Notes: a model not told the origin generated them from the sequence alone. A stretch of 64,000 nt of DNA from Candidatus Onthoplasma sp. (GCA_045633705.1 JAZQYV010000010.1:129669-193668); one strand, 5' to 3'. Counted from the first letter of the stretch, positions 1 through 39,874 are shown. Made by a program: numbers and translations.

Positions 1-1059
1 GAAAGATTATTAAAGTCTATCTTTGGTGAAAAGACTAAAGAAGTTAAAAACACATCATTAAAAGTTAAGCATGGCGAAGCTGGTGTGGTTGTTGGTGTTG
101 AAATCTTGTCACGTAAAAACAAAGATGAGCTAGATGCTGGTGTAAATATGATGGTTAAAGTATACATTGCACAAAAACGTGTACTTCAACCTGGTGATAA
201 ACTTGCTGGTCGTTATGGTAACAAGGGTGTTGTATCAATTGTGTTACCTGAAAGTGATATGCCATTTATGGCAAACGGACAAACTGTTGATATTATCTTA
301 AACCCAATGGGTATCCCATCTCGTATGAACTTGGGACAATTGTTGGAAATGCACCTAGGTCTTGCTGCAAAGCATCTTGACTGGAAGGTTGCAACTCCAA
401 GCTTTGATAGCGCAACAGAAGAACAAATTCAAGAATTACTTCGTCAAAACAACTTGCCAGAAGACGGTAAGATGCAATTATATGATGGACGCACAGGTCT
501 TCCATTTGAAAACAAGACCAACGTTGGTGTGATGTATATGCTAAAACTTAACCACATGGTTGAAGACAAGCTGCATGCTCGTAGTATTGGTACTTATGCA
601 TTGATTACACAACAACCTCTAAGTGGTAAATCACAACTTGGTGGACAACGTTTTGGTGAAATGGAAGTGTGGGCATTGGAAGCATATGGTGCAAGTAGAT
701 TGCTACAAGAAATGCTAACAATTAAGTCGGACGACGTTGAAGGACGTATTAAAACTTACGAAGCTATCGTTAAGGGTGAACCTATTCCAGAACCTGGAAT
801 GCCTGAAGCATTTAAAGTTTTGGTTAAGGAAATGCAAGGTCTTGGTCTAGATGTTAAGATTTTAACAGCTGACCAACACGAATTGTCAATCAATGAAGTG
901 GCTGACCAAGAAGTTGAATTTGATGCAGTTCAACCAGTTAACAAGGTTGGGCTTGAAGATATTACTCTTGAATTTGATAAGATTCAAGAAAGTTATGAAT
1001 CACAAGTGTCTGAACAGACTTTTGATGAATCGGCATTATTTGACGATTTAGATGACTAG
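1..1059 (+). CDS. rpoB: DNA-directed RNA polymerase beta subunit, C-terminal part (gene starts upstream of the window)
   Basis: Frame 1 is open from base 1 ([11 protein letters not shown]...). Hallmark motifs [23 protein letters not shown] and [18 protein letters not shown] are present. rpoC follows directly. Confidence 0.97.
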
Positions 1060-1080
1060 AAAAAAGTATAGGAGAAATAT

Positions 1081-4000: not shown

Positions 4001-4653
4001 AGGGTGATACTGAAGAATCATATATGTTGCCATATGGTGTAACATTAAAGGTTAAGCCAGGCGATATGGTTCAACCAGGTACAACTTTAACTGAAGGTCC
4101 AGTTAACCCTCGTGATATCTTAAGAACACGTGGTGTTAAGGCTGTTCAAGAATATTTGTTAAACGAAGTACTAAGCGTTTACAAATCTCAATCAGTTGAT
4201 ATCAACGCTAAACACTTGGAAATTATTATTCGTCAAATGCTACGTAAGGTTAAGATTGAAAATGCAGGCGATACAAAATTGTTGCCAGGAGACAGCATTG
4301 ATATTAGCCTATACGAAGAAGAAAACAATCGCGTACTAAGTGAAGGTGGCGTACCTGCGACAGCTAAACGTGAATTGCAAGGTATTACAAAAGCTTCACT
4401 TACAACCGAAAGCTTCTTGTCGGCGTCTTCATTCCAAGAAACAAGTAGCGTGCTAACCGAAGCTTCATTAAAGGGCAAGGTTGACCACTTGTTAGGATTG
4501 AAGGAAAATGTTATTATTGGTAAACTTATTCCTGCTGGTACAGGTTGTGCGCAATATCGCAACACTCTTCCTAAAGAAGTTGACCAAAACGGAATATATA
4601 ATATTAATGATGACGTTGATATCACATTTGCCGATATTGAGCTTATGGATTAA
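1081..4653 (+). CDS. rpoC: DNA-directed RNA polymerase beta-prime subunit
   Basis: 1190 aa. N-terminal Zn-finger cysteines ([15 protein letters not shown]), catalytic NADFDGDQM motif and GGAG-type SD upstream. Confidence 0.97.
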
Positions 4654-4661
4654 TGTTGATA

Positions 4662-4695
4662 ATAAGAGTAACTTTAATAGTTGCTCTTATTTTTT
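4662..4695 (+). terminator. Rho-independent terminator after rpoC
   Basis: Stem ataagagtaac / gttgctcttat (one G-U pair), 7-nt loop, then a T-run. Confidence 0.7.
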
Positions 4696-4875
4696 ATTAA
4701 AAATCTTGGTTGCTTATAGCAAGAAGGGTAGATTTGATTGTTGTTTTATTAAATTGCCAATTATTTGTAAATCATAAAAATAATTATTAATTAATTGCAG
4801 CAATATACTATAAAATAGTATTTTATCGACATTTTAAATAATTTTTATTTTTTTAAAAAAAGTTGCTGAAAACTA

Positions 4876-4904
4876 TTTACAAATCAAAATATTTGTGCTA
4901 TAGT
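4876..4904 (+). promoter_or_regulatory. sigma-70-like promoter
   Basis: TTTACA, 17-nt spacer, TATAGT, about 28 nt upstream of the 4932 start. Confidence 0.5.
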
Positions 4905-4931
4905 ATCAGTATATTTAAAGGAGGTATGTAT

Positions 4932-5078
4932 ATGGAAAAGACATACAACGTTTGGGTATTAGGGGAAAATGGAAAAGTTACAAAAGGTACACATACAGTA
5001 AATAGCGATGTGTTTGCAAACGTGGCTGCAACTCTTAAGGAAAAGGTGCAAGCTAAAGAAGAAGGTTTGTCTTTATAA
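4932..5078 (+). CDS. small hypothetical protein (48 aa)
   Basis: AAGGAGG SD lies 7 nt upstream of the ATG at 4932. The track ORF start at 4863 lacks an SD. No family recognised. Confidence 0.45.
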   Translation: MEKTYNVWVLGENGKVTKGTHTVNSDVFANVAATLKEKVQAKEEGLSL

Positions 5079-5311
5079 GTTTTATCAACTTACAATATAT
5101 ATTTGCCCTAAAAAATATTTAGGCCTAACCAATTAAACGACTTACAATGTTATGCAATGAAACTTGCATAGGTTTGTTACCCACTAAAATAAAATGACTT
5201 AAGGTCTGACAACTTTTTACACAAATTTTAAAATGTGTATTAATTTGTTGGACTTTTTTGTTTTTGTGTGGTACACTAAAGTTAGTAGATTAGCGAAAAG
5301 AGGTTTTTAGT

Positions 5312-5569
5312 ATGAAAGAATTAGTTTATCCTGCAGTGTTGTATAAAGATAAGGAAACAGATGCTTTTACAATTGCAATCCATGATTTGGGTATTGTTAC
5401 CGAAGGTAAAACGGTCGAAGATGCGTTTGTTAATGCGCGTGACCATTTAACAGCGATGTTTGAATGTGCTGTTAAGCTTGATTGTGAAATTGATGCACCA
5501 TCACCATTTATTAAAATTTGGAAGGAAAACAAGGAAAATATTGTTATATTGGTTGATGCGTTGGCGTAA
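5312..5569 (+). CDS. HicB-like (UPF0150 / HicB_lk_antitox-type) small protein
   Basis: 85 aa. N-terminal pattern YPAVLYKD..D.FTIAIHDLG..TEG.T.EDA matches my recollection of the HicB N-terminal fold. No DNA-binding C-terminal domain. Confidence 0.55.
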   Translation: MKELVYPAVLYKDKETDAFTIAIHDLGIVTEGKTVEDAFVNARDHLTAMFECAVKLDCEIDAPSPFIKIWKENKENIVILVDALA

Positions 5570-5580
5570 AAGGAGGGCTT

Positions 5581-6111
5581 ATGGAAGTTAAGGTTAATGC
5601 TCAAAATTGGGCAGAACTGGATTTTTTGATAAACAACTTCTATGAAATAGTTGAATATAAACGTGGTCGTGGTATTTACGGGGATAGAGTTATTTTAAAG
5701 CGTAGCAAACGTCCTGAATGTATTTTTGGGGATAAAGACAAGTATTATGAGTTTTATTATCTAAATGCAAATGCAGTTAAGGAATTGCCACGTACTATAT
5801 ATGAAAAAATTAAAATTGTTGAACGCATAGTTGTATCGCCTGAAAATATGAACTTGCTATGCGATTTTAATGAAGAAGGGAATCAAACAATTGTTGACTG
5901 GGCAACCCAAACGGCAATTGAATTAAATAATGCCGCAACATTGGATTTCGAGGTTTTAAACAAGATATTGATTAAAAGATATAGTTTGCTTGGTAAAACG
6001 TTTATCGACAAATTAAATGAACATCGTAAACTTCAATATTTTTTGGCAACCAGCCCTACACTTAATTTAATTCCAGAGCAGCATGCAACAGATGAATTGA
6101 ATAAGCTATAA
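5581..6111 (+). CDS. hypothetical protein (176 aa), probably co-transcribed with the HicB-like gene
   Basis: AAGGAGGG SD, 11-nt gap after the previous stop, terminator immediately downstream. No family recognised. Confidence 0.6.
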   Translation: MEVKVNAQNWAELDFLINNFYEIVEYKRGRGIYGDRVILKRSKRPECIFGDKDKYYEFYYLNANAVKELPRTIYEKIKIVERIVVSPENMNLLCDFNEEGNQTIVDWATQTAIELNNAATLDFEVLNKILIKRYSLLGKTFIDKLNEHRKLQYFLATSPTLNLIPEQHATDELNKL

Positions 6112-6113
6112 AG

Positions 6114-6136
6114 CACCCAACCGTTGGGTGTTTTTT
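6114..6136 (+). terminator. Rho-independent terminator
   Basis: cacccaa-ccg-ttgggtg hairpin followed by TTTTTT. Confidence 0.7.
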
Positions 6137-6245
6137 GTATTTGAACATAAAATACAAGTTTGATTAAAATAAAATTTTAAAACATTTGCATATATGGCTA
6201 ATATGTGATAGTATATTAATAATAATTATACAAAGGAGGGATGTT

Positions 6246-6887
6246 ATGTATAAGAAGGGTTATAAAACTATGGCAGGCATTAATTTGTTGCTGGGGCTAT
6301 GTGCAATATTTTTATATATGCCGTATATGTTGCAAGCATTTGATGTTAATGTAACCAAATGGATTGAATTTGGGACTGATTTGTTTAAAAAGAACTATAT
6401 CAATGTGTTGATAGTTTTTGGAATAATTTTATTGATTTGGGTTGTTGGGTTAACAATCGCGTCGTTACTTTGCAGGCCAAATATTCCAAAGTTGATACTT
6501 AAGGTTGCAGTGATGGCAGCATTAGCATTGCCGTTAATGTACGTGTTGGCGCTAAAGTATGAATGGGCGGCAGAATTTTGGATTAAAAATATTGTAAAAA
6601 ACATTAAAACAATAAGCTATGTGCTAATCATTGTATCTTGCGGAAGTTTTATTTTAGGAGTGTTGTTTAATTTTAGCAAAAGACACAAGGCAAATTTACA
6701 CCACATTACACAAGCATTGGTTATGTGCGTATTGTTGGTATTGTTTGTTGCTGTATATGGCATGTGTGGCTGGGAAATAAAACTTGACCTTGCAATGAAA
6801 TTGTATGGTGTTTTGATGGGGTTGTTTGCAATATATTTACCACTGTCAACAATATTTATATTGCAAAGCGCAAACAAGAGATTATAA
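6246..6887 (+). CDS. polytopic membrane protein, unknown function
   Basis: AAAGGAGGG SD upstream of the ATG at 6246. About 6 hydrophobic segments. Confidence 0.6.
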   Translation: MYKKGYKTMAGINLLLGLCAIFLYMPYMLQAFDVNVTKWIEFGTDLFKKNYINVLIVFGIILLIWVVGLTIASLLCRPNIPKLILKVAVMAALALPLMYVLALKYEWAAEFWIKNIVKNIKTISYVLIIVSCGSFILGVLFNFSKRHKANLHHITQALVMCVLLVLFVAVYGMCGWEIKLDLAMKLYGVLMGLFAIYLPLSTIFILQSANKRL

Positions 6888-7085
6888 CTATGATAGAAAA
6901 TTTGTTTGTGTAGATACAATTACGGTTAAATGCATGCTATACACAAATAAAAACACTAAAAGTTGCTTAAAATATAATAAAAATGCAACTTTTTTTAATA
7001 TCTTGACAAAAATTGTCAAAAATTATTTGTGTTTTGATTTAAAAAATGTTAAGATTAAGTATATAACAATTTTTAAGGGGTAAAT

Positions 7086-8435
7086 ATGTTAAGAGTTTTT
7101 ATTGCATTAGGCAAACAATTGCCTAAAAATCAAGCAATTATTGAAGACACTGAAATGGTTGCAAAATTGCTTGCTAAGTACAATTGCACAATGGTGCAAG
7201 GCGGCGCCAAGATTGGGCTTATGGGCGTGGCTGTAAAAGAGTTCCAAAAATATAGCGATGAAGTTGTTATGATTGTGCCTGAAGTGCACAAAAGTGACCT
7301 TGTTGGCGCTAAATGTAAAGAACACTACATCGTAGAAGGTGAAAGTGATAGAATGCGCATCACTATTCATACTTGCGACATGATGATTGTTATGCCTGGC
7401 GGTTCAGGCACGCTTGCAGAGCTTGCATACTATGCAGAAACTTGTAAGAGTGGCGAGCATAAGGCTAAAGTTGTTGTGGTTAATACTAAAGGATACTACA
7501 ATAAGCTATTTAAGTTCCATAGACATCAAATTAAAAATGGCTTTATGAAAGAAGAAGACTGCAAGTACGAGGTTGTTGATAGTGCTAAAGACCTTGAACC
7601 AATTATTCAAGAGTTGATTACTAAAAAACAAGCTGAAATTCAACAAAAAGAAGTTGAAGCGAAGAAAAAAGCAGAAGCTGAAAAGAAAGCCGCTGCTAAA
7701 AAAGCTCCAGCTAAAAAGGTTGTGGCTCAAAAGGTTGAAAAGAAGGTAGAGGCAAAGCCGGTGGCAAAAACTCAAGCTAAGAAGGCTGCACCTGCAAAAA
7801 AAGAAGCTGCTAAGGCTGAAAAACCCGTAGCTAAAACAGCTCCAGAAAAAGTTGAACAAGTAAAGCCAGTGGTTGAAGCTCCAGTAAAAGTAGAAGTAAA
7901 GAAAGCTCCAGCCAAGAAAGTGGTAGCAAAAGCAGAACCTAAAAAGGCTGAAGCTAAACCAGCTGCAAAGGCGCCAGCTAAAAAGACTGAAGCTCCAAAA
8001 GCTGAAAAGAAAGTAGAGGCAAAGCCGGTGGCAAAAACTGAAGCAAAGAAGGTTGTACCTGCAAAGAAAGAAACTACTAAGGCTGAAAAACCCGTAGCTA
8101 AAACAGCTCCAGAAAAAGTTGAACAAGTAAAGCCAGTGGTTGAAGCTCCAGTAAAAGTAGAAGCAAAGAAAGCTCCAGCCAAGAAAGTGGTAGCAAAAGC
8201 AGAACCTAAAAAGGATGAAGCTAAACCAGCTGCAAAGGCGCCAGCTAAAAAGACTGAAGCTCCAAAAGCTGAAAAGAAGGTAGAGGCAAAGCCGGTGGCA
8301 AAAACTCAAGCTAAGAAGGCTGCACCTGCAAAGAAAGAAACTACTAAGGTTGAAAAGCCTGTTGCTAAAAAGCCAGCAGTAAAGACTGCTGCAAAACCAG
8401 CTGCTAAGAAAGCTCCTGCTAAGAAGGCAAAGTAA
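7086..8435 (+). CDS. LOG / TIGR00730-family (lysine-decarboxylase-like) protein fused to a ~270-aa Ala/Lys/Pro-rich histone-H1-like tail
   Basis: N-terminal ~180 aa carries GGAKIGLMG and PGGSGTLAE(L) motifs typical of the LOG family. The C-terminal part is AKKAAPAKK-type low complexity built from tandem repeats. Confidence 0.8.
   Translation: MLRVFIALGKQLPKNQAIIEDTEMVAKLLAKYNCTMVQGGAKIGLMGVAVKEFQKYSDEVVMIVPEVHKSDLVGAKCKEHYIVEGESDRMRITIHTCDMMIVMPGGSGTLAELAYYAETCKSGEHKAKVVVVNTKGYYNKLFKFHRHQIKNGFMKEEDCKYEVVDSAKDLEPIIQELITKKQAEIQQKEVEAKKKAEAEKKAAAKKAPAKKVVAQKVEKKVEAKPVAKTQAKKAAPAKKEAAKAEKPVAKTAPEKVEQVKPVVEAPVKVEVKKAPAKKVVAKAEPKKAEAKPAAKAPAKKTEAPKAEKKVEAKPVAKTEAKKVVPAKKETTKAEKPVAKTAPEKVEQVKPVVEAPVKVEAKKAPAKKVVAKAEPKKDEAKPAAKAPAKKTEAPKAEKKVEAKPVAKTQAKKAAPAKKETTKVEKPVAKKPAVKTAAKPAAKKAPAKKAK
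7734..8360 (+). repeat. in-frame tandem repeat, period 267 bp (89 aa), about 2.35 copies
   Basis: Copies start at 7734, 8001 and 8268 with very few mismatches between copies. Copy 3 matches copy 1 at first, then switches to copy-2 variants. Confidence 0.92.
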
Positions 8436-8454
8436 TAGAAGATAACAATAAAAA

Positions 8455-8478
8455 ATCCACCTAGTGTGGATTTTTTTT
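8455..8478 (+). terminator. Rho-independent terminator after the LOG-fusion gene
   Basis: atccac-ctagt-gtggat followed by T8. Confidence 0.75.
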
Positions 8479-8520
8479 ATAATTTGCCTTAAATATATTA
8501 TTAATATATTTATAATAAAA

Positions 8521-8549
8521 ATCACCAACAACCAGTTGGTGATTTTTTA
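8521..8549. terminator. bidirectional terminator (serves xfp on the minus strand)
   Basis: atcaccaac-aacca-gttggtgat flanked by an A-run and a T-run. Confidence 0.7.
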
Positions 8550-8554
8550 AATAC

Positions 8555-10924
8555 CTATTTCTTTTTTGTTGCATGCCATTTCCAGTTTCTAACCTCTGGA
8601 ATGTCTTGACCGTATTTGCGAACATATTCGTTATGCTTTGCCAATATTTCATTCATCTTCCTGTCAAGGTCAGAATATTTCTTTTCGCCCTTACTTATCT
8701 TGGCAATAATGGATTTAACAATGTGGAAACGGTCGATTTGGTTTTGAACTCTTACATCAAATGGAGTTGTGATGGTGCCTTCTTCACGATATCCAAATAC
8801 ATTTATATCTCGGTTTTTACGAGACCATGTTAGCTCGTGGATTAAGGTTGGATAACCATGATACACAAAGAATATTGGTTTGTTAGTTGTAAACAATTTG
8901 TTATATTCAGTATCAGTTAATCCATGAGAATGGTTTTCGTCTGTTCCAATTTTCATAAGGTCCACAACGTTGATAAATCTAACCTTTAAATCAGGAAGAT
9001 ATTCATTTAAGATTGTGGTGGCAGCCAATGCTTCAAGGGTAGGGGTGTCGCCACAACAAGCAAGCACTATGTCAGGATTCTTGTCACAGTTTGAAGCCCA
9101 ATCCCAAATACTTAAGCCGGCTGTGCAATGCTTGATTGCCTCAGGCATGCTTAACCATTGATGTGATGGGTGTTTGCTGGCAACGATTGTATTAACATAA
9201 TTTTTACTTCTTATGCAGTGGTCATAGCAAGACAATAAACAGTTGGTGTCAGGTGGAAGATACATTCGGATAACATCTGCTTTTTTGTTGGCGATGTGGT
9301 CCAAGAATCCTGGATCTTGGTGGGTGTATCCATTATGGTCTTGTTGCCATACGTTTGATGTTAACAAAATATTTAGTGATGCAATGTCTTGACGCCAAGG
9401 CAATTCGTTACAAACCTTTAACCATTTTGCATGCTGACTAACCATCGAGTCAACAACTCTTATAAACGATTCGTAACTTGCAAATGTGCCGTGTCGACCA
9501 GTAAGAAGATAACCCTCAAGCCAACCTTCACATACATTTTCACTTAAGAAACAATCCATAACTCTGCCATCTGGAGCAATATTATCATCAGTCTTTAAAA
9601 TACTTGCATTAAATGTTTTAGGAGATGCGTCAAAGGCTTTATACAGCCTATTTGATTTAACTTCATCAGGGCAGAACAATCGATAGTTGTTCGGGTTTAG
9701 TGCGATTATATCTCGTATAAATTTGCCAAGCTCTAACATATCTTGTGCTTTAACTTCGCCATGCTTTGGAACATCAACTGCATACTCAGCAAAGTCTGGC
9801 ACGCGTAGTTCTTTAAACAATAAGCCCCCATTCGTATGTGGGTTGGCGCTCATGCGTGCAAATCCTTTAGGGCACAATTCTTTTAGTTCTGGTTTTAATT
9901 GATAACCTTTTGTAAACAATTCATGTGGCTTATAACTCATCAGCCAATCGCGCAACAACAATATATGCTCTGGTTTTGACATATCAATTGGAATTTGGTG
10001 CGCGCGGTGAGAATTTTCAATGGTTTGACCATCGACTTCCTTTGGCCCCGTCCAACCCTTTGGGGTATTGAGAACAATCATTGGCCATAAAGGTCTTGAT
10101 GAGTCATTATTTGTACGTGCGTTTGCTTGAATTTGTTTAATTTCTTTAATAACTTCGTCTACAACAATAGCCATTGTTTTATGCATCGTTGCAGGGTTGC
10201 TGCCAGAAACAAAATATGGTTTCCATCCATAACCTTTTAACAGACTTTCAAGCTCGTTATGTGTTATGCGCGCCAAAACTGTCGGGTTATTTATTTTGTA
10301 GCCATTTAGATGAAGTATTGGTAATACTGCACCGTCAGTAATTGGATTTAGAAATTTGTTGCTATGCCAAGAAGTGGCAAGAGTGCCAGTTTCGGCTTCG
10401 CCATCACCTACAATACACGCTGCAATTAGATTTGGATTGTCAAACACTGCACCAAACGCGTGAGCAAGCGAATATCCAAGCTCACCGCCTTCGTGTATTG
10501 AACCTGGAGTTTCGGGAGCGACGTGGCTAGAAACGCCTCCAGGGAATGAAAACTGTTTGCACAATTTTTTCATACCCTTATAATCTTGACTTACAGTTGG
10601 GTAAACTTCACTATATGTTCCTTCCAAATATGCGTTGCTTACAAATGCATTTCCGCCGTGGCCAGGGCCGACAAGCATTATCATATTAAGGTCAAATTTG
10701 TTTATAGCGCGATTTAGGTGTGCATATATAAAGTTTTGGCCAGGAATTGTGCCCCAATGACCAACTATCTTTTTCTTAATATCGGTAACTTTAAGTGGCT
10801 CATACAATAATGGGTTATCCATCAAATATAGTTGAGCTACGGACAAATAATTGGCTGCACGCCAATAAGCATCAACCTTTTTTAAATATCCTGCTGATAG
10901 GAAATTGTCTTTTTCTTTTTTCAT
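8555..10924 (-). CDS. xfp: xylulose-5-phosphate/fructose-6-phosphate phosphoketolase
   Basis: 789 aa. N-terminus ..[18 protein letters not shown].., plus [15 protein letters not shown] and GDGEAETG motifs. Confidence 0.95.
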
Positions 10925-27626: not shown

Positions 27627-27701
27627 TGGTAGCCCCTACGGGAATCGAACCCGTGATACCGCCGTGAAAGGGCGGTGTCTTAACCGCTTGACCAAGGGAC
27701 C
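27627..27701 (-). tRNA. tRNA-Glu (anticodon UUC)
   Basis: Reverse complement GGTCCCTTGGTCAAGCGGTTAAGACACCGCCCTTTCACGGCGGTATCACGGGTTCGATTCCCGTAGGGGCTACCA folds as a cloverleaf. Anticodon loop is CTTTCAC and CCA is encoded. Confidence 0.9.
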
Positions 27702-27709
27702 ATATATAG

Positions 27710-27785
27710 TGGTAGCGGTAGAAAGATTTGAACTTTCGACCTATCGGGTATGAACCGATCGCTCTAACCCCTGAGCCATACCGCC
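27710..27785 (-). tRNA. tRNA with CAU anticodon (elongator Met, or Ile2 if lysidine-modified)
   Basis: Reverse complement GGCGGTATGGCTCAGGGGTTAGAGCGATCGGTTCATACCCGATAGGTCGAAAGTTCAAATCTTTCTACCGCTACCA forms a cloverleaf with encoded CCA. Confidence 0.85.
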
Positions 27786-28075: not shown

Positions 28076-28104
28076 TTGACTTAAATAAGAAAAAGTGTTA
28101 TTAT
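28076..28104 (+). promoter_or_regulatory. promoter of the 1369-aa ORF
   Basis: TTGACT, 17-nt spacer, TATTAT, about 100 nt upstream of the start codon. Confidence 0.6.
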
Positions 28105-28206
28105 ATAAATAATATGGGAAGTTTTTGTTAGATTGATGTTGTTTGCAGAAGACGCTTTCTTAAAATTATGGTAACGATTGTTGCCAATAAAGATTAGGAG
28201 ATAAGT

Positions 28207-31200
28207 ATGGAAGAAGTAAAAAGTAAAATTGTGGTTGGCGGAGAAACTACTAAAAAGGGGATTAAAAGTAGTGCATATCAACAAATAAAAGCTGATAATG
28301 CCACACATATTAAGGCAGTTACTAAAACTGTAGTTGATAAAGAAACCGGCAAGCCTAAATCTATTGTAACAAATGAATTTATTGAAATAAAAGATACTAT
28401 GCGATTTATTAGAGTAAGGATAAACTCAGAAACAGGCTCTCCTGTTGGTAAGGGCGAACTTATTCATTATACAGAAATTAAGCCAGATAAAAACTACAAA
28501 TATCAATGCGTTGATGGTGAAATTTTGTATATGATTGAATCTTTGATGTTTAGCAAAGTGTCTTTTATGCGCAATGATCCAAGCCCCAAATCAACACATT
28601 ATAAGTGTGCTGATGGTGTGTATGTTAGAAAAGACGAAGTCCAAGTTCCAGCATACAAGATTGTGGATATGCCTATTGGGCACAACCTAATCCAAGACAC
28701 AATTCATAATAATAAGCATTACGTAGAAATGGCTAAAATAGAAGTTGATGGTAAGGTGATGGAGGTTGCAAGCGATTTTGTCAAATCCCAAGGCGACAAG
28801 CATTATTGGTATCACAAGGACAAGCATGGTAAGGAAGTAAGGCAGGAATGCGACCGCATTGGTGTAGAGAAGAAGTATGTAAACTATGTTATGGTTGATG
28901 GTAAAACTGTTGTTAAATTAGATAAGTTAACTGCTGATTCAAATGGTGAATATGTTGTTGATTTAGGTGAAAAGGGCAAGGTTTCGGTTGCAAAAACTGA
29001 AATTGATGTTAAGGGCTTGTTTGTTGAGGGAGCTGCAGTTGGTGCAACTAGAGAAATAAAGGCAAATCCTACTAATAAAGATGTCGCAACGGATATAAAC
29101 AACGCTACATTTGTTTTTGATAAAAAGAAAGGCATAACAAGGATAATTGCCAACAAAAATGATGGCTATGCGGTTGTTGTTACTGGTTTAGGTAAGGATT
29201 CGCATTATGAGATTATACTTAAGCACAACACAATTAGGTTGGAAGATGTTTTAGCAAGGTTAGAAGCTTGGTCAAAATCCAACAAAGACTATCAATTTAA
29301 TCGTCACACTAAAGACAGCTTTAATGTTAGAAGAGTTGAAAAGTTTGAAATAATTGATGCCGCGGAAGAAGGTATAAAGATTGTTTATCCTGAAATGGGT
29401 GAAAAGGCATTGGCTGAAGATGTTAAAGTTAAAGATGGTCAAGTTATTGCTTGTACTTTAAGTGGCAAACAGTTAACAGATATTAAGTGGTCTGATGACC
29501 TAGACTTCCCACGCATAGAGGAATATACGATAGATGGGGTGACCATATCTAATATTGAGTGGACAGGAGAAAAGATTGGCAGTTGTGTGGTTTCATTTAA
29601 AGATGAAAATGGAGAATCGAGAATTGTTAATCTTAAGGGAACTGAACTTGAAAAGTCAGCCTACAATGCATATGCTATTAGAAATAGTAAAAACGTACAG
29701 GTTAGAGATTTAAAAATTGATTCTACCGAAACTGAGCAAACCACACTTTCATTTAAAATTGGTGATTACACAATTACCAAAGCTGAATATGATATTACCA
29801 ATAAAAATATAGGCAAATGCGTGGTTCAACATAAGAATGGGCCTGAGCAGGTTATTGATTTAAGTGTAGACCCAAGATTCAAGCATTTGCAAATGGCTAT
29901 TCAAGTTTCGCTTGATGCTGACAGAGTTAAACCATTGTTGGAATCAAGATTGGTTGAAAAGAAAGATGGCAAGTATGAAAAGGTGGCAGACGTTGTTCAA
30001 ACCGGTCCAATAGAAAGTAATGGCACTGCTAGTGCAGAAAAATTGGATAGTCTTGAACAGGCTGTTAAAGCGCAAGAGGAATTTACGGAGAAGCCTTACC
30101 CAACCTGGACTATAGATTCCAAAGGCAAAATTCATCAAGTTGATGATGTTAAAAATTCTTATAGTGGCGAATCTGAGTTTGAGTGTGAAGTTGATTATTT
30201 TAAAAACCTAATCGGTAAGGACAAGATAGAAGTTAAAAAGGGTAAAATAGTAATTGACCCTAAAGCTGGAAATGAGCGTAGGAACAATCAATTATTTGTG
30301 GGTCTTGCATTATGTTCAAACTTTTTAACAATGCCAATAGGATTATGTATTTTAGGTGCTGGCATTGTAACAGCAATAGCTGAACCCATCAGAAGGGCAA
30401 TAAAAGAAAGAAGGCTTAACAATTTGACTGTTGAAAAAGTTATGGCAAAAACTAGAGAAAAAGTTAAAGCTCAATGCCAAAAGAATATTAAGAAGCTAGA
30501 AAAAGAATTTCGAAGAAAGGTGGCTTGGGGCAAAAAGAATATGAGCTCGGAAGCCTTCAGGGAATACCAAGAAAGGGCAAGCGCGGAATTTATGACCAAA
30601 ATGTCGGCAGAGGCTACTAAGATGAGTATTTATGGCGAAGGGGCTTTGGCATGCAATTTTGATTTAGGAAAGAAAACTAAGTTAACCTCTGAAAATATGC
30701 TTGGTTGGATTGCTGGCAATAATAAAAAGAGAGAGCTTGTTGAAGGTAAAAAGCCTAGTTCAAAATTTAAGTCTGCATGGAAAACTAGAGTCATTTCTGC
30801 AGAAACTGGAAAACATACTGAAAAAATAACTGCTGAGAATGTGCAAGAAGCGGTTGCTGTGTTAGAGTCGCTTGGAGGTAGAAAAGAACATATTAAGGCA
30901 TATAAGTTGCGAATGAAACATGCTGATGTTTTTAGAATGAGTGACAAGAACTTTACAGATGCAAACCGCCCAGATTTGGAAGCTTATAAAATGGAGATGA
31001 GGGCTGATTATTATAGAAGTGTGGCAGAAGACGGATGGGCAAGCATTGATGACAAGGTTGATGCATTTAAGAGAAGTGAGGAATTTACACAATATACAAC
31101 AGCTAAGGAACGCAAGGAAGCCATAGAAGGCAAAAGGTCAGAATTGACCAAGAAAGCAAATTCTACCAAAGTTACTGGAGCTGAATTTGGGGAGGTTGAA

Positions 31201-32316
31201 GACAAAAATGGTAATTTGATGTCTGATGTATATGGCCAAAAAATTATGAATAAAGCAGCTCAAACTGTTAGCAAAGTTCTTAATACAGAATTAAATGCAG
31301 AAGAAGAGGTTTATGGCACCACATTGGCAGAACAAGTTTGTCATGTGGCTGGTGGCTCAAATGTGCGTAGATTGCGTCATGATGCAATGATTGCGCAATC
31401 TGAATTTGAACAAGTTAAAGACCAACAGCAAAATATTGACAATGAAATTATGTCAATAAAGGATAGATCGGCGATTGCTATAAAGCAAGGAAATTATGAA
31501 TTGGCATATATGTTACAAACAGAAATTAAGTCTAAAGAGCAACAATATAAAGATGAGCTTGCTAGAAGCAAAAAGAATATTGAGGGAAGACTTTATGGAG
31601 AATTGACTTCAGGGCAGGGCGGAGATTTGTCAAAACGTTTGGATAAGTTAATGGTCGTTAGCAGGACAATTGACAAGAGATTGCAGACTGCAAAAGAAGT
31701 GGCGCAAAGAGAGCATGAAAGAAGAGTTAAATTGTGGGCGAGTGAGGAATTTGTGTCAAAACACTCAAAAGAATTTAACGATTATGTAGACGATTTGCGC
31801 AAAAAGGCTCCAAATTTAAATTTTGATAATGAAAATGTTGTTCGTGGGGTGGTGGCATCATTTACTTCAAATATGTTAAGTAAAGAAATTAATGCAAATG
31901 ACGACCAAAGAGAAATTTATCAAGAACAAATGGATATGCTCATGGTTAAGCATAACATTGAGGAAAATGTAGCAGCGCAAGCCTACTGTGAAGATGCTGA
32001 TGTTAAGGCTAAATATGAAGAATATTGTGCAAAAAACCCAAGCTTAAAGCCTGAAGAGGCTAGATTGTGGTTCTATGCAAAGCGCAAGCGTGAAGATGCC
32101 GTGGCTGTTGATAAATTTAAAAAGGCCAATAAGGACAAGCTTGAAGAATGTGCTGTTAAGCGCCTTGAAGAAGGTAAGCTTAAAGAGCATCAAAAGAAAG
32201 ATAGAAAACTTAAATTGATTAAGGGGAAAAGCAAAGAAACAAATGCAACGGCTAAAGTGTCAGCAACTGCTGCTCCCGTCGCAGCTCCTGCACATGAAAT
32301 TGGTCACACTGCATAA
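28207..32316 (+). CDS. giant orphan protein (1369 aa) with a central hydrophobic hairpin
   Basis: Uninterrupted 4.1-kb ORF with AGGAG SD, its own promoter and terminator. No signal peptide. Hydrophobic segment at about aa 696-727. K/E-rich helical C-terminal half. No domain recognised. Confidence 0.85.
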   Translation: MEEVKSKIVVGGETTKKGIKSSAYQQIKADNATHIKAVTKTVVDKETGKPKSIVTNEFIEIKDTMRFIRVRINSETGSPVGKGELIHYTEIKPDKNYKYQCVDGEILYMIESLMFSKVSFMRNDPSPKSTHYKCADGVYVRKDEVQVPAYKIVDMPIGHNLIQDTIHNNKHYVEMAKIEVDGKVMEVASDFVKSQGDKHYWYHKDKHGKEVRQECDRIGVEKKYVNYVMVDGKTVVKLDKLTADSNGEYVVDLGEKGKVSVAKTEIDVKGLFVEGAAVGATREIKANPTNKDVATDINNATFVFDKKKGITRIIANKNDGYAVVVTGLGKDSHYEIILKHNTIRLEDVLARLEAWSKSNKDYQFNRHTKDSFNVRRVEKFEIIDAAEEGIKIVYPEMGEKALAEDVKVKDGQVIACTLSGKQLTDIKWSDDLDFPRIEEYTIDGVTISNIEWTGEKIGSCVVSFKDENGESRIVNLKGTELEKSAYNAYAIRNSKNVQVRDLKIDSTETEQTTLSFKIGDYTITKAEYDITNKNIGKCVVQHKNGPEQVIDLSVDPRFKHLQMAIQVSLDADRVKPLLESRLVEKKDGKYEKVADVVQTGPIESNGTASAEKLDSLEQAVKAQEEFTEKPYPTWTIDSKGKIHQVDDVKNSYSGESEFECEVDYFKNLIGKDKIEVKKGKIVIDPKAGNERRNNQLFVGLALCSNFLTMPIGLCILGAGIVTAIAEPIRRAIKERRLNNLTVEKVMAKTREKVKAQCQKNIKKLEKEFRRKVAWGKKNMSSEAFREYQERASAEFMTKMSAEATKMSIYGEGALACNFDLGKKTKLTSENMLGWIAGNNKKRELVEGKKPSSKFKSAWKTRVISAETGKHTEKITAENVQEAVAVLESLGGRKEHIKAYKLRMKHADVFRMSDKNFTDANRPDLEAYKMEMRADYYRSVAEDGWASIDDKVDAFKRSEEFTQYTTAKERKEAIEGKRSELTKKANSTKVTGAEFGEVEDKNGNLMSDVYGQKIMNKAAQTVSKVLNTELNAEEEVYGTTLAEQVCHVAGGSNVRRLRHDAMIAQSEFEQVKDQQQNIDNEIMSIKDRSAIAIKQGNYELAYMLQTEIKSKEQQYKDELARSKKNIEGRLYGELTSGQGGDLSKRLDKLMVVSRTIDKRLQTAKEVAQREHERRVKLWASEEFVSKHSKEFNDYVDDLRKKAPNLNFDNENVVRGVVASFTSNMLSKEINANDDQREIYQEQMDMLMVKHNIEENVAAQAYCEDADVKAKYEEYCAKNPSLKPEEARLWFYAKRKREDAVAVDKFKKANKDKLEECAVKRLEEGKLKEHQKKDRKLKLIKGKSKETNATAKVSATAAPVAAPAHEIGHTA

Positions 32317-32328
32317 CTGAATAAATAA

Positions 32329-32367
32329 AAGGGTTTGATTACAAAATAATAATCAAATCCTTTATTT
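32329..32367 (+). terminator. Rho-independent terminator after the giant ORF
   Basis: aagggtttgatta / taatcaaatcctt stem (one G-U pair) followed by a T-rich tail. Confidence 0.75.
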
Positions 32368-32431
32368 TTATTTAAAATACTTGACTTTTAAGCTTTTAGG
32401 ATTGTAATATAATTAAGTAAGGAGATAATTT

Positions 32432-32986
32432 ATGAAAAATATTTTTCGTAAACTTTTAGTTTTGGGGTTGGTAACTGTATCAGTTGTTGGTTTGAATGCA
32501 TGTGGAGCAAATAAAGATGATGAAAATAAGTTTTATATAGACGGACTTGAAACCGCATATGAACTGGCTGAAGAGTTTGTTGTAGTTGGTAAAACTTTGA
32601 ATATTACACTCAAAGATGGGACAACCAAAGAAGTTGTGGTAACCGAAGAAATGGTTAAACAAACCATCGATATGTTAAGTATTGGCGAACAAACGCTTAT
32701 TATTGAATATGAAGGTGTTGAATATAGATTTGTGGTTGAAATTGTAGATACTGTTGTTAGCTATAGTTTTGATGGTCAGATGGAGTATTTTGTTGACGAT
32801 AAATTTGATATCAGTATGATTTATATGAATGTTGAATGGAAAGGCGGCTTAAGTGAGATAATACAACTTAAAGAGAGTATGTTAGTTGTTGCTCCTGACA
32901 TGAGATATGCTGGAAACAAGACAATAACAATTGAATTTAAAGGAAAAGAATATCAGTTTTCGATAAGGGTTAATTCAAATAATTAA
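32432..32986 (+). CDS. lipoprotein with two beta-rich (Ig-like-looking) repeats
   Basis: Signal peptide ending in the lipobox-like LNAC. Repeated ..TLIIEYEGVEYRFVVEIV / ..KTITIEFKGKEYQFSIRV. Confidence 0.75.
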   Translation: MKNIFRKLLVLGLVTVSVVGLNACGANKDDENKFYIDGLETAYELAEEFVVVGKTLNITLKDGTTKEVVVTEEMVKQTIDMLSIGEQTLIIEYEGVEYRFVVEIVDTVVSYSFDGQMEYFVDDKFDISMIYMNVEWKGGLSEIIQLKESMLVVAPDMRYAGNKTITIEFKGKEYQFSIRVNSNN

Positions 32987-33133: not shown

Positions 33134-33667
33134 ATGAAGACCAAGCTTGCAAAGCAATTTAAATCCCCAACAACAGATTTTGGAAAATGTCAAAGATTGA
33201 TAGATAAAATGTTAAGAGAATACAATATTGATATACAAACCTATAAATTGGGAGATTTGTATTGTGGAGAGTTATGTTGGGTTTTGGACAAACAGATAAA
33301 TGCATATGTAGAAGGCGGAACTAGTGATATCACTTTTTGTTTAAAGCCATTAGCAATAGGGATATTTGAATATCAACCAGCACACTTTTATAAATATATG
33401 TTTGTTGGCGGGGATTATTATTTAAACGTTGCAAGGGGACATAGATTTGTTTCAGATAAGTATAGCGATAATATTAAAATAATGAGAAGGGATATTATTG
33501 TTAACAGTAGCACTTGTAAAAAGCTAATGGATAAATTTGGGAAAGATATTATAGAGTTTGGATATAATGAAAACAGTACGTTAACAAAAGAAGAAATTAG
33601 AAAACTTGAAAATATGTTAACCGGCAAATACGCAGATTACATGCATGGCACAAGGCTTGTAAGATAG
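33134..33667 (+). CDS. hypothetical protein (177 aa)
   Basis: AGGAGAG SD upstream. No family recognised. Confidence 0.6.
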   Translation: MKTKLAKQFKSPTTDFGKCQRLIDKMLREYNIDIQTYKLGDLYCGELCWVLDKQINAYVEGGTSDITFCLKPLAIGIFEYQPAHFYKYMFVGGDYYLNVARGHRFVSDKYSDNIKIMRRDIIVNSSTCKKLMDKFGKDIIEFGYNENSTLTKEEIRKLENMLTGKYADYMHGTRLVR

Positions 33668-34331: not shown

Positions 34332-34406
34332 TGGCGCCTCAAGTAGGGCTCGAACCTACAACCTATCGGTTAACAGCCGAGTGCTCCACCATTGAGCTAT
34401 TGAGGC
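34332..34406 (-). tRNA. tRNA-Asn (anticodon GUU)
   Basis: Reverse complement GCCTCAATAGCTCAATGGTGGAGCACTCGGCTGTTAACCGATAGGTTGTAGGTTCGAGCCCTACTTGAGGCGCCA. Perfect 7-bp acceptor stem, anticodon loop CTGTTAA. Confidence 0.9.
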
Positions 34407-34458: not shown

Positions 34459-34659
34459 CAGTTTTTGTAAAGTTTTTTAAAATTTTTGAATTATTTTTTG
34501 TGGTTTTGTGGTTTTAACTGCGAATTATAAGCTTTACAGTATTTTAATTTTAAACAAATAGTAGGGGTTTTATAAAACGGCCAGATGTTTGGTTTGTTAT
34601 AAGATTAACCATAAATACAAAATTTTCATACAACATAACGTATAATAAAGGAGAGGTTG

Positions 34660-35151
34660 ATGGATAATAACCCTATTGATTTTAAAGATTTATTTAATCG
34701 AATGCCGCAAGCCAGAGCAAGGCTAAACGGGAGTATTTTATATCCGGATATACAAGGAGATATATGGTTTTACCAAGCCAATGAAGGTGTATTTGTGGTG
34801 GCAGACATTAAAGGCTTACCAAACAATAAAGGCAAGTGTGTAGAGTCTATTTTTGGATTTCATATACACGAAGGAGATAGTTGTAGTGGAAATGCAACCG
34901 ACCCATTTGCTAACACTGGAGAGCATTATAATCCAAGCAGGTGTATGCACCCTCAACACGCTGGTGATTTGCCTCCGTTGTTTGGTGTAAATGGATATGC
35001 GTTTTTAGCCGCACTAACTAATAGATTTAAAATTGAGGAGATTGTTGGGAAAATGGTGGTTGTGCATTCAAAAGCTGATGATTTTACTTCGCAACCAGCG
35101 GGGAATGCAGGCATTAAGTTAGCCTGTGGTGAAATTAAGTGGTATAAATAA
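34660..35151 (+). CDS. sodC: Cu/Zn superoxide dismutase family protein, no signal peptide
   Basis: FHIHEGDSC, GEHYNP, HAGDLPPL, VVVHSKADD and GNAGIKLACGEI motifs. Confidence 0.85.
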   Translation: MDNNPIDFKDLFNRMPQARARLNGSILYPDIQGDIWFYQANEGVFVVADIKGLPNNKGKCVESIFGFHIHEGDSCSGNATDPFANTGEHYNPSRCMHPQHAGDLPPLFGVNGYAFLAALTNRFKIEEIVGKMVVVHSKADDFTSQPAGNAGIKLACGEIKWYK

Positions 35152-38222: not shown

Positions 38223-39341
38223 ATGGGTTTATTTGGATTTGTAAAAAAACAAATGTTGGAGGTTTTGGAATGGAAAGATGATTCTAAAGACATTTTAGTT
38301 TATCGTCACCCAATGCAAAATCGTGAAGAGATTATGAACAGTTCTACACTTGTAGTACGAGAATCTCAAGTTGCATTATTTGTGCATAAGGGGCAAATTG
38401 CAGATGTGTTTGGACCTGGCACATATAAGCTAAACACTGAAAATATTCCGTTCTTGACAAAATTATTGTCATTGCCTACGGGATTTAATAGTAGAATTAA
38501 AGCCGAAGTATATTTTATTAACACTAAACAATTTATGGGACAAAAGTGGGGAACTCAAAATCCTATTATGATGAGAGATGCGGATTTTGGTTCTATCCGT
38601 CTTCGTGGGTTTGGTACGTTTAGTTATAAGGTTAATGATGCCAAGATATTTATGAAGGAAGTTTTTGGAACAAACCCTGTTTATAGAGTAGAAGATTTGA
38701 CAATTCAATGTAGGGCCATTTTACTATCTAATATAAGTGATGCAATTGCAGAAGCCAAGCTTCCAGCTTTGGATTTGGCGGCAAACTATAAGGAAATCGG
38801 CCAACAAATTGTTAGTGTATCGCAAGATGAATTTAATAAGATTGGTTTAAAGTTATGCAAAGTTACGGTTGAAAACTTATCTCTTCCTGAAGAAGTTGAA
38901 AAGGCTCTTGATGAACGTAGTAAACTTGGAATTCTTGGTGATAAAATGGGAACATATGCTCAATATCAGGCGGCAACAGCAATGCGTGATGCGGCCAACA
39001 ATCCAAATGGAGGGAATATGGCTGGCATTGGTGTTGGTCTTGGTGCTGGTGCGACCATGGGCAATTTGTTTTCAAATAGCATTGCAAATGTTAAAGATGA
39101 GGCGCCAAAACGCACATGTATAAAATGCGGCGCTGGAATTTCCCCAAGAGTTAAGTTCTGTCCTGAATGTGGTTCTAGCCAAACCGAAACATGTCCTAAG
39201 TGTGGAGAAGCTGTGCACAAAGGAAGCAAGTTCTGTACTAATTGTGGTGAAAAGTTAGTAAAGGAAAAGACATGTCCTAAATGTGAAAAAGTTCTTAAAG
39301 CTTCATCAAAGTTCTGCCCTGATTGTGGAGAAAAAGTTTAA
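38223..39341 (+). CDS. SPFH-domain protein with C-terminal zinc ribbons (COG4260 / B. subtilis YdjI-like)
   Basis: N-terminus MGLFGFVKKQ..EVLEW.D......VYRHP, an SPFH-like core, a Gly-rich linker, then four CxxC pairs (CIKCG..CPECG..CPKCG..CTNCG..CPKCE..CPDCG). Confidence 0.78.
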   Translation: MGLFGFVKKQMLEVLEWKDDSKDILVYRHPMQNREEIMNSSTLVVRESQVALFVHKGQIADVFGPGTYKLNTENIPFLTKLLSLPTGFNSRIKAEVYFINTKQFMGQKWGTQNPIMMRDADFGSIRLRGFGTFSYKVNDAKIFMKEVFGTNPVYRVEDLTIQCRAILLSNISDAIAEAKLPALDLAANYKEIGQQIVSVSQDEFNKIGLKLCKVTVENLSLPEEVEKALDERSKLGILGDKMGTYAQYQAATAMRDAANNPNGGNMAGIGVGLGAGATMGNLFSNSIANVKDEAPKRTCIKCGAGISPRVKFCPECGSSQTETCPKCGEAVHKGSKFCTNCGEKLVKEKTCPKCEKVLKASSKFCPDCGEKV

Positions 39342-39403
39342 TAAAATAGATGATTATTATATAGTTACAATCATCTATTGGAAGATATGTAAAGGAGAAA
39401 GTT

Positions 39404-39874
39404 ATGAAAAAAATTGATAAAAATGCTTATCAAGAAAAAAGATATGATAAAGGACATTTGATGATTGTTGGGCTAGTTGTTGCGGTGTTGGCATTAGCCT
39501 TGATAATTGGTGGAGTTGTTTTATTTATTAAAGGAATTAAGGTTGATGGTGTTTGGTCAACAATTTGGCGCATTATGCTAAGTGCCGTTATGTTATTGTT
39601 AGGTTTACCATTTGCATATGTTGCCTTTATGATGATGGTAACTGCAAATTCTATGATTAGTGTTAAAGATGGTAATGTGAGTGACGTTGGCAATAGCGCT
39701 GTTGGAACAGTTAATATCAACAAATGTCCTAAATGTGGTGAAAAGCTTGAAGATGCGGCGGAGTTTTGCCACAAGTGCGGAGCAGAAGTTGAAAGTGTAA
39801 TTAAATGCTCTTGTGGATATAAAAACAAGGCTGATGCAGAGCACTGCATAAAATGTGGCAAAAATTTGAAATAA
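39404..39874 (+). CDS. membrane protein (2 TM) with two C-terminal zinc ribbons
   Basis: Two hydrophobic helices, then CPKCG..CHKCG and CSCG..CIKCG. Confidence 0.7.
   Translation: MKKIDKNAYQEKRYDKGHLMIVGLVVAVLALALIIGGVVLFIKGIKVDGVWSTIWRIMLSAVMLLLGLPFAYVAFMMMVTANSMISVKDGNVSDVGNSAVGTVNINKCPKCGEKLEDAAEFCHKCGAEVESVIKCSCGYKNKADAEHCIKCGKNLK

Follow-up and report, generated by a model that had tools for sequence, protein, structure and literature searches.

What kind of protein is encoded by the largest gene in a stretch of core chromosome from an uncultured gut bacterium, when its product resembles nothing with a name? The stretch in question (hereafter the window) is 64,000 nucleotides (nt) of Candidatus Onthoplasma sp. 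(GCA_045633705.1 JAZQYV010000010.1:129669-193668), and the gene lies at 28207..32316 on its plus strand. At 1369 amino acids (aa), its product clearly exceeds that of the next-longest open reading frame (ORF), rpoC (1190 aa), so an earlier reading made from the DNA alone (the sequence-only reading) was right to call it the largest gene in the window. The analysis places this giant protein in a family not described before, with some 30 cluster representatives of 1255-1548 aa; on the sequences searched, this family occurs only in a narrow clade of gut Clostridia with reduced genomes (Candidatus Onthoplasma and its relatives, GTDB UBA1242). The protein is functional, is constrained most tightly around a mid-chain hydrophobic segment predicted to be a hairpin, and diverges far faster than its neighbours. 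The reading given most weight, with a probability of roughly 45%, is that of a lineage-specific scaffold without enzymatic activity, which the hairpin would anchor to the membrane from the cytoplasmic side and which would carry a disordered tail with a terminal docking peptide.

The family came into view through profile searches. A word-indexed search of 5.8 billion proteins returned only two relatives (48% and 39% identity), and word-indexed queries with the full protein, a three-member profile and a C-half profile yielded nothing beyond these two, probably because K/E-rich words swamp the candidate list. An exhaustive hidden Markov model (HMM) search with an N-half profile gave 32 hits, 28 of them at E<=1e-30, and the label of orphan that the sequence-only reading had attached to the protein was dropped. 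The relatives are mostly 1255-1548 aa long and align through the hydrophobic segment. A 25-member alignment (A5) shows one three-part layout in all its members, which are 20-50% identical to the window protein, and the public name of the relatives is 'hypothetical protein [Clostridia bacterium]' and no other. What looks like a singleton in word-indexed searches can be a 30-member family. Of two weak repeat hits (P0032 and P0033), one is a high-GC repeat protein with no relationship to the family and the other resembles tail fibres; in each, a short motif is matched and summed over nine repeats, and both were rejected as uninformative.

A GTDB scan found nothing with a three-member alignment and two loci in metagenome-assembled genomes with a nine-member alignment, and scans of JGI metagenomes and of IMG/VR for the giant family gave no match. 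One family locus is annotated as Candidatus Onthoplasma sp. GTDB assigns this genus to the family UBA1242 (Christensenellales), a lineage of uncultured bacteria from animal guts whose genomes measure 0.67-1.6 Mb; its members lack amino-acid, nucleotide and lipid biosynthesis as well as ATP synthase, are rich in uncharacterised membrane proteins, and have been proposed to live in dependence on a partner (PMC12306168).

The gene and its product divide as follows, coordinates being those of the window.

28076..28104, plus strand: sigma-70-type promoter, 10 of 12 consensus matches in a consensus scan, with TG
28105..28206, plus strand: 5' leader, about 96 nt long, with AGGAG (28196-28200) at its end, 6 nt ahead of the ATG
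28207..32316, plus strand: giant ORF, 1369 aa, the longest in the window
28207..30291, plus strand: N-terminal half, aa 1-695, beta-rich in an AlphaFold2 (AF2) model, no signal peptide
29407..30756, plus strand: most conserved and constrained core, aa ~401-850, from a per-50-aa conservation profile and the lowest sliding-window ratios of nonsynonymous to synonymous substitution rates (dN/dS, 0.03-0.10)
29467..29892, plus strand: two ~70-aa beta modules in tandem (aa 421-490 and aa 497-562), from HHalign of family sub-profiles
30292..30387, plus strand: single hydrophobic segment, aa 696-727, from hydropathy, with a central turn-prone C-S-N-x-x-T-x-P-I-G
30388..32178, plus strand: C-terminal helical region, aa 728-1324, K/E-rich and net positive, with many helices of 14-51 residues
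32179..32313, plus strand: low-complexity tail rich in K/E/Q/P/A, with a short small/hydrophobic peptide at its end (...EIGHTA in the window)
32328..32373, plus strand: intrinsic-terminator-like hairpin (32328-32363) with a 14-bp AT-rich stem, and T-run, parting the giant gene from a lipoprotein gene

Hydropathy analysis of the whole 1369-aa protein reveals one hydrophobic segment only (aa ~693-728). All 25 aligned members possess exactly one such segment, comprising 23-41 uncharged residues, and in all of them it parts a beta-rich from a helical half, as the sequence-only reading had described for the window protein. In most members the centre of the segment holds a motif prone to turns, (S/N)-N-P-x-T and/or P-(I/L/V)-G, and the helix is broken at aa ~703-708 in the AF2 models of both halves. 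The flanks differ in charge: the C-flank is strongly basic (a mean of about +5.4/-1.3 charges in 15 residues) and the N-flank approximately neutral.

The N-half has a net charge of -5 and contains 12% K and 10% V; its beta-rich character, also part of the earlier description, is seen in the AF2 model, though that model is of low confidence. Its conserved motifs include an N-terminal ATH and DGxYVxKDExQ(I/V)PAYK at aa 136-151, and the extreme N-terminus, M-I/E-F-x-G-K ... A-T-H, is conserved across the family. The window sub-clade differs in its N-terminus, which begins MEEVKSK... instead of the MIFEGK... of the others. The two copies of a ~70-aa module noticed in the sequence-only reading are real at the profile level, where they align over 64 columns (HHalign probability 98.3%, E 1.7e-14) and share a conserved Trp/Ile and Cys at equivalent positions (IGSC and IGKC). 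The pair was not detected by plain self-BLAST of the giant protein, profile comparison across the whole protein found no third copy, and BLAST of the module against the neighbouring Big_3 lipoprotein gave no match. The core consists of the tandem modules, an alpha/beta region ahead of the hairpin (KKDGKYExVADVVQT...), the hairpin itself and the basic helices that follow it.

The C-half has a net charge of +21 (K 13.3%, E 11.1%, A 10.5%) and is all-helical in its AF2 model, in agreement with its first description as K/E-rich and helical. The recurring (E/K)E(F/Y)xxY units that were also proposed there are weakly supported, the lone internal similarity being a weak one between aa 1175-1225 and aa 1253-1295 (profile-level probability 73%). 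The final ~40 residues of the protein have a predicted local distance difference test score (pLDDT) below 50 in AF2, and the terminal peptides in relatives read GLTA, FGL, LAL, LAM or LSA. Such a charged tail with a terminal peptide may be likened to linker-plus-docking-peptide modules, for example the FtsZ C-terminal peptide.

No named domain emerged from the database searches. The single protein gave nothing above noise against Pfam, NCBIfam and PDB sequences, the 25-member family profile had no match among PDB sequences, and the 25 members scanned singly had none in Pfam (E<=0.01), PHROGs or PADLOC. The sequence-only reading had recognised no catalytic or named domain and had taken the protein to be undescribed; both statements hold, and neither its sequence nor the weak structure models place the protein in any known family. 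Conserved Walker A, HExxH, CxxC, GxSxG and LPXTG motifs were sought in the 25 members without success. The pattern [AG]xxxxGK[ST] occurs in two of the 25, at unrelated, non-aligned positions, while LPxTG is absent from all 25 and Pfam repeat-domain matches are lacking. The invariant residues of the family are all hydrophobic or glycine, which argues against an enzyme.

Several specific identities were rejected on these grounds. An SMC-like protein is contradicted by the lack of a Walker A motif and of SMC_N or hinge matches in Pfam, and by the beta-rich N-half. A Sec-exported or sortase-anchored adhesin does not fit a family in which no signal peptide (25 members), no LPxTG and no Big/Ig-like repeat match was found. 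A known anti-phage defence system was set aside in view of the fixed core-genome position and of the PADLOC result for the 25 members.

Structural comparison was made with AF2 models of both halves built from three-sequence alignments, with pLDDT 46 for the N-half and 61 for the C-half. Foldseek searches of these models against PDB and BFVD gave only matches with a template modelling score (TM) of <=0.1. The top matches of the N-half were tail fibres and Rhs shells, at TM 0.04-0.10 and a root-mean-square deviation (rmsd) of >25 A for a pLDDT-46 model. The N-half may therefore be an elongated beta structure, as a lead from tail-fibre-like matches and not as a fold assignment. Neither the profile nor the Foldseek searches of the two halves matched an adhesin, an SMC-like or a dynamin-like protein, the identifications that the sequence-only reading had named as speaking against it. 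The family may be categorically new, although its distance from others may partly reflect rapid divergence and poor models.

Comparison of the window with syntenic loci at the amino acid level shows how unusual the divergence is. Identity is 92-96% for GlyRS, 80-91% for the SPFH protein, 77-83% for L9 and 73-76% for the LtaS-like protein, against 24-48% for the giant protein (N-half 24-53%, C-half 22-43%). Both halves diverge at similar rates, the C-half slightly faster. Between the window and locus L001, dN is 0.40 for the giant gene and 0.025 for glyS, dS being saturated for this pair. The 92%-identical pair L008/L010 gives an overall omega (dN/dS) of 0.14 for the giant gene, with values of 0.03-0.06 over aa ~226-525 and ~676-900 and of 0.19-0.26 in the last ~400 residues. 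In every sliding window the ratio is below 0.26, the lowest value being 0.03, and pervasive positive selection was rejected for this reason. Purifying selection of this strength (omega 0.03-0.25) identifies the giant protein as functional. The rapid divergence probably accounts for its orphan-like appearance and for the lack of detectable homologues beyond the clade.

One further observation concerns the same pair of loci (L008 6897-11171 and L010 363-4643). The dS of the giant gene (0.28) is lower than that of all flanking genes (0.45-1.3), which suggests recent homologous exchange between otherwise more diverged genomes.

These features bear on how the protein sits in the membrane. The length of the hydrophobic segment and the Pro/Gly at its centre speak for a hairpin, either re-entrant or tight, which would put both halves on one side of the membrane. 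That side should be the cytoplasm because a signal peptide is lacking and the start codon is fixed: an N-terminal signal peptide or hydrophobic stretch was found in none of the 25 members, as the sequence-only reading had already stated for the window protein, and in most relatives the conserved spacing of promoter, Shine-Dalgarno sequence (SD) and ATG leaves no space for a longer N-terminus. For the same two reasons the term 'envelope-associated', taken as surface-exposed, is not supported. The conserved Cys residues of the N-half modules were also counted for a cytoplasmic location, as conserved cysteines are typical of cytoplasmic, not secreted, Firmicute proteins. From the sequences, both halves are thus inferred to be cytoplasmic.

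The favoured scaffold would work as follows. The 30-40-residue segment, whose centre carries an Asn/Pro/Gly turn, would enter the membrane as a hairpin, either re-entrant or tightly helical, and the beta-rich N-half and the helical, net-basic C-half would both remain in the cytoplasm. The membrane-proximal regions on either side of the hairpin would form the conserved functional core, and the distal N- and C-regions would act as rapidly diverging spacers or interaction surfaces. The short peptide that ends the disordered C-terminal tail would dock or recruit a partner. In such an arrangement the protein would have a scaffold or recruitment role.

A number of considerations weigh against this scaffold. 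To call a large non-enzymatic protein a scaffold is the default reading, and the absence of fold matches is weak evidence because the models are of low confidence (pLDDT 46 and 61). The neutral N-flank and positive C-flank would equally fit a single N-out/C-in span, and the hydrophobic arms, of ~10-17 and 16-21 residues, could belong either to a hairpin or to one helix with a kink. A beta-rich N-half, tandem modules, fast divergence and a partner-dependent lifestyle would be expected of a surface protein.

Such a protein would span the membrane once with its N-terminus outside, its N-half exported by an unconventional route to contact a partner organism, the host or a phage, and its C-half left in the cytoplasm; we regard this as unlikely. 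The flanking charges would then follow the positive-inside rule, but a stretch of 30-41 residues with a central Pro/Gly is long for one span. The tandem ~70-aa modules of a beta-rich N-half would suit surface display, as would the weak, non-significant fibre-like matches of that half, whereas its conserved cysteines would not. The giant protein is also the fastest-diverging among its syntenic neighbours (24-48% against 73-96% identity), yet divergence is not confined to the N-half: the two halves have diverged to a similar extent, the C-half slightly more. A partner-dependent life has been proposed for the lineage, which is rich in uncharacterised membrane proteins (PMC12306168), and in the window clade a Big_3 lipoprotein gene adjoins the giant gene. 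Nevertheless, a signal peptide or N-terminal anchor is found in 0 of 25 members, whose start codon is fixed by promoter and SD. To our knowledge, signal-less translocation of a highly charged N-tail of ~690 residues is unprecedented in bacteria, which counts further against display.

The expression signals suggest a gene that is used. The promoter consists of a -35 element TTGACT (28076-28081), a 17-nt spacer and a -10 element TATTAT (28099-28104), with TG at -15/-14. With the AGGAG and the terminator-like hairpin also present, the self-contained promoter-to-terminator unit of the sequence-only reading is confirmed. The -35 (TTGAxT) and the extended -10 are kept in all nine family loci aligned (alignment A8), and this conservation is much stronger support than a consensus match. 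It also implies that expression of the giant gene matters; the gene is real and probably well expressed. Promoter, SD and ATG all lie inside ~30 nt in the other family members, while the window clade (window, L001 and L002) has ~85 nt extra between promoter and SD. A regulatory leader RNA was rejected as an explanation for the leader, which has no Rfam match and a fold z-score of about -1.1. The minimum free energy fold of the leader pairs the SD with the upstream UUUCUUAA; at z -1.14 this fold is not significant.

The giant gene occupies a fixed place in the chromosome, and its surroundings include the following features.

27627-27785, minus strand: tRNA-Glu and tRNA-Met pair
32432-32986, plus strand: Big_3 lipoprotein gene, 62-68% identical in the two closest relatives
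33134-33667, plus strand: 177-aa ORF, with a homologue in L008 (3879-4304; 34% identity, E 6e-19)
34332-34406, minus strand: tRNA-Asn, downstream of the giant gene in the window
34657-35151, plus strand: Cu/Zn superoxide dismutase homologue (SodC), 66% identical in L001
35283-36566, plus strand: 427-aa Rho-like protein, 61% identical in L001 (7949-9220)
38223-39341: gene, separate from the giant gene, for an SPFH (Band_7_1) protein that carries a double zinc ribbon

The window as a whole is core chromosome, with rpoB/C, phosphoketolase, Tex, NrdDG, an LtaS-like sulfatase, DUF1540, L9, SodC, GlyRS and an SPFH/zinc-ribbon protein. Wherever a family locus has context (L001 and L005-L011), the giant gene lies directly downstream of tRNA genes. 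Downstream of it in these loci are GlyRS, the SPFH/Zn-ribbon protein, a 344-aa ORF, a 156-aa Zn-ribbon ORF and an opposite-strand amidase, and in L007 and L008 the upstream genes match those of the window too.

This constancy bears on the suggestion that the gene is cargo of a mobile element or phage remnant lodged between tRNA genes, which is refuted for practical purposes. As the sequence-only reading had reported, tRNA genes do flank the segment (in the window each of them lies on the minus strand), but the boundary that it drew from them is not meaningful and reflects ordinary core synteny. In L006 an integrase/WYL/PDDEXK block lies upstream of the same tRNAs, yet the giant gene keeps its slot in all loci with context. 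A search for att-like direct repeats found no repeat >24 nt and none matching the tRNAs, the tRNA-flanked segment of the window has no integrase, and GC (0.33-0.37) is like that of the surroundings, with unremarkable skew. Phage, plasmid and IMG/VR collections and PHROGs hold no relatives. The giant gene is, on this synteny, probably inherited vertically.

The tRNA neighbourhood has itself been repeatedly rearranged while the giant gene remains adjacent. The window, L001, L005 and L006 carry the tRNA-Met/Glu pair on the minus strand, L007 and L008 on the plus strand; tRNA-Asn, found downstream of the giant gene in the window, is upstream of it in L006, L007, L008 and L011. Between tRNA-Asn and tRNA-Glu/Met, L006 carries at 132-9344 a block with integrase, ABC transporter, FtsH-like, WYL, PDDEXK, HTH and LRR genes. 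With this block just upstream of the giant gene, the tRNA cluster is an integration hot spot in that genome, the giant gene itself lying outside the insert.

The neighbours on the other side raised the idea of a three-gene envelope system, in which the giant protein, the Big_3 lipoprotein (32432-32986) and the product of the 33134 ORF would act together. The giant and lipoprotein genes are indeed adjacent in the window and in both closest relatives (L001 and L002), where the lipoprotein is 62-68% identical, but they follow one another only there: in L005-L011 the lipoprotein is absent from the locus, and GlyRS or the SPFH cluster comes directly next. The terminator and a separate promoter-like site also part the two genes. 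The 33134 ORF lies immediately upstream of rplI in both the window and L008, and the L008 copy is distant from the giant gene; this position suggests a conserved partnership of the ORF with the L9 gene, not with the giant gene. In the window sub-clade, the interval between the giant gene and GlyRS has also gained SodC and the Rho-like gene, which marks it as a variable spot. The joint conservation of the three genes proposed in the sequence-only reading was not found, and a common system, largely refuted by this pattern, is very improbable.

Also far from the favoured scaffold is a secreted effector or toxin that inserts into membranes. On the model of colicin pore domains, T3SS translocators or chlamydial Inc proteins, its hairpin would be buried in the soluble form and would enter the membrane of another cell. 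A conserved, bilobed hydrophobic hairpin without a signal peptide could serve such a protein, and the conserved extreme N- and C-termini could be recognition signals; however, no secretion-system, immunity or chaperone gene is a conserved neighbour in nine loci, and neither PADLOC nor toxin-domain matches were obtained. A partner-dependent lineage (PMC12306168) would offer targets for an effector, but the giant gene is fixed in the core genome and is not a variable accessory, and the basic juxtamembrane helix and hairpin-centred constraint fit a resident membrane protein. We consider this reading slightly less probable still than the three-gene system.

Taken more broadly, a device for interaction with a partner or host, in which either the N-half reaches the surface or the hairpin enters another cell's membrane by a route of export or insertion unlike known ones, is doubtful, about as much so as surface display. 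If it were true, the protein would mediate the intercellular contact that the biosynthetically crippled UBA1242 are thought to need, and its fast divergence would represent co-evolution with partners or phages.

The remaining observations concern the neighbouring genes. The Big_3 lipoprotein is fast-evolving for a small protein (68% identity where GlyRS has 96%), and a second, weak Big_3-like fragment (32% over 65 aa) occurs in L001 at 9274-9468, downstream of the Rho-like gene. SodC has no obvious N-terminal signal peptide, is found at this interval in the window sub-clade only, and belongs to an anaerobic-type genome with NrdDG. The Rho-like protein has a sub-threshold match to the Rho RNA-binding region (Pfam E 1.7e-5; NCBIfam Rho models score 19-27 bits, their cut-offs being 315 and 509), and nothing was matched beyond that region, including the Rho ATPase part. 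In this reduced genome it could be a Rho paralogue that has degenerated or taken on another role.

The SPFH gene, the 344-aa ORF and the 156-aa zinc-ribbon ORF form a cluster conserved in the clade (window 38223-39874; L001 12516-15189), and the window is without the 344-aa gene that all other loci have between the SPFH gene and the 156-aa ORF. The layout recalls that of B. subtilis YdjG/H/I. A search for positional orthologues covered 80 metagenome loci (L013-L092) with an SPFH neighbour at 44-70% identity; these gave no family-HMM hit and no consistent giant ORF upstream. The SPFH and 344-aa pair stands alone in those loci and is widespread in metagenomes. A functional link of the giant gene to the SPFH/YdjI-like cluster is therefore not supported, and their proximity is, as far as gene order tells, clade-level synteny.

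Every clade member examined keeps this 4-4.6-kb gene behind a conserved strong promoter, at a cost of ~0.5% of a ~0.85-Mb genome, and the gene evolves several-fold faster than its neighbours yet under purifying selection. In other reduced-genome organisms, such genes have proved to be lineage-specific machinery for shape, attachment or partner contact. By that analogy, the family is a testable candidate for membrane organisation or partner interaction in uncultured gut bacteria, although the giant protein may be no more than a structural component of the membrane, of local interest.

At present the giant protein is still a hypothetical protein, and the likenesses drawn with known systems are architectural analogies only. 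Phage tail fibres and Rhs proteins are the top Foldseek matches of the N-half model, and one weak HMM hit is to a tail-fibre-like repeat protein, but the TM is <=0.10 and no Pfam, PHROGs, phage-genome or IMG/VR match accompanies them. The C-half resembles EzrA of Firmicutes in that a membrane anchor is followed by ~600 residues that would form helical bundles in the cytoplasm. Unlike EzrA, the giant protein has a 690-residue N-half before its mid-chain anchor; no EzrA Pfam match occurs in the 25 members, and no spectrin-like repeats were detected in the C-half, where there is one weak internal similarity.

Mitofusin/Fzo, atlastin/Sey1 and bacterial dynamin-like proteins resemble the giant family in overall design, with a large N-domain and a helical C-region; their mid-chain hairpin or paddle, which has its flanks on the cytoplasmic side, may have a counterpart in the single hydrophobic segment of 23-41 residues. 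In contrast to these proteins, the giant family has no GTPase domain in Pfam or NCBIfam, a Walker A pattern in only two of 25 members at non-aligned positions, and a beta-rich N-half.

HMW1 and HMW2 of Mycoplasma pneumoniae are very large, non-enzymatic, fast-evolving and lineage-restricted proteins with charged low-complexity regions, encoded in a tiny genome. There is no sequence relationship between them and the giant family, the HMW proteins are without a mid-chain hydrophobic hairpin, and UBA1242 is not known to have an attachment organelle. The analogy would lie in large size, fast evolution and restriction to a lineage of tiny genomes.

Stomatin, flotillin and caveolin are non-enzymatic, oligomerising scaffolds. 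The giant family differs from stomatin and caveolin in lacking SPFH (Band_7) and caveolin domain matches, and in placing its hairpin mid-chain between halves of ~650 residues in proteins of 1255-1548 aa, and not near the N-terminus. In SPFH stomatin/flotillin proteins and caveolin, a ~30-40-residue segment with a central Pro forms a re-entrant hairpin with cytoplasmic flanks (compare PMC5456319). In its similar length and central helix-breaking residue, the hydrophobic segment of the giant family would be comparable to the membrane anchor of these scaffolds.

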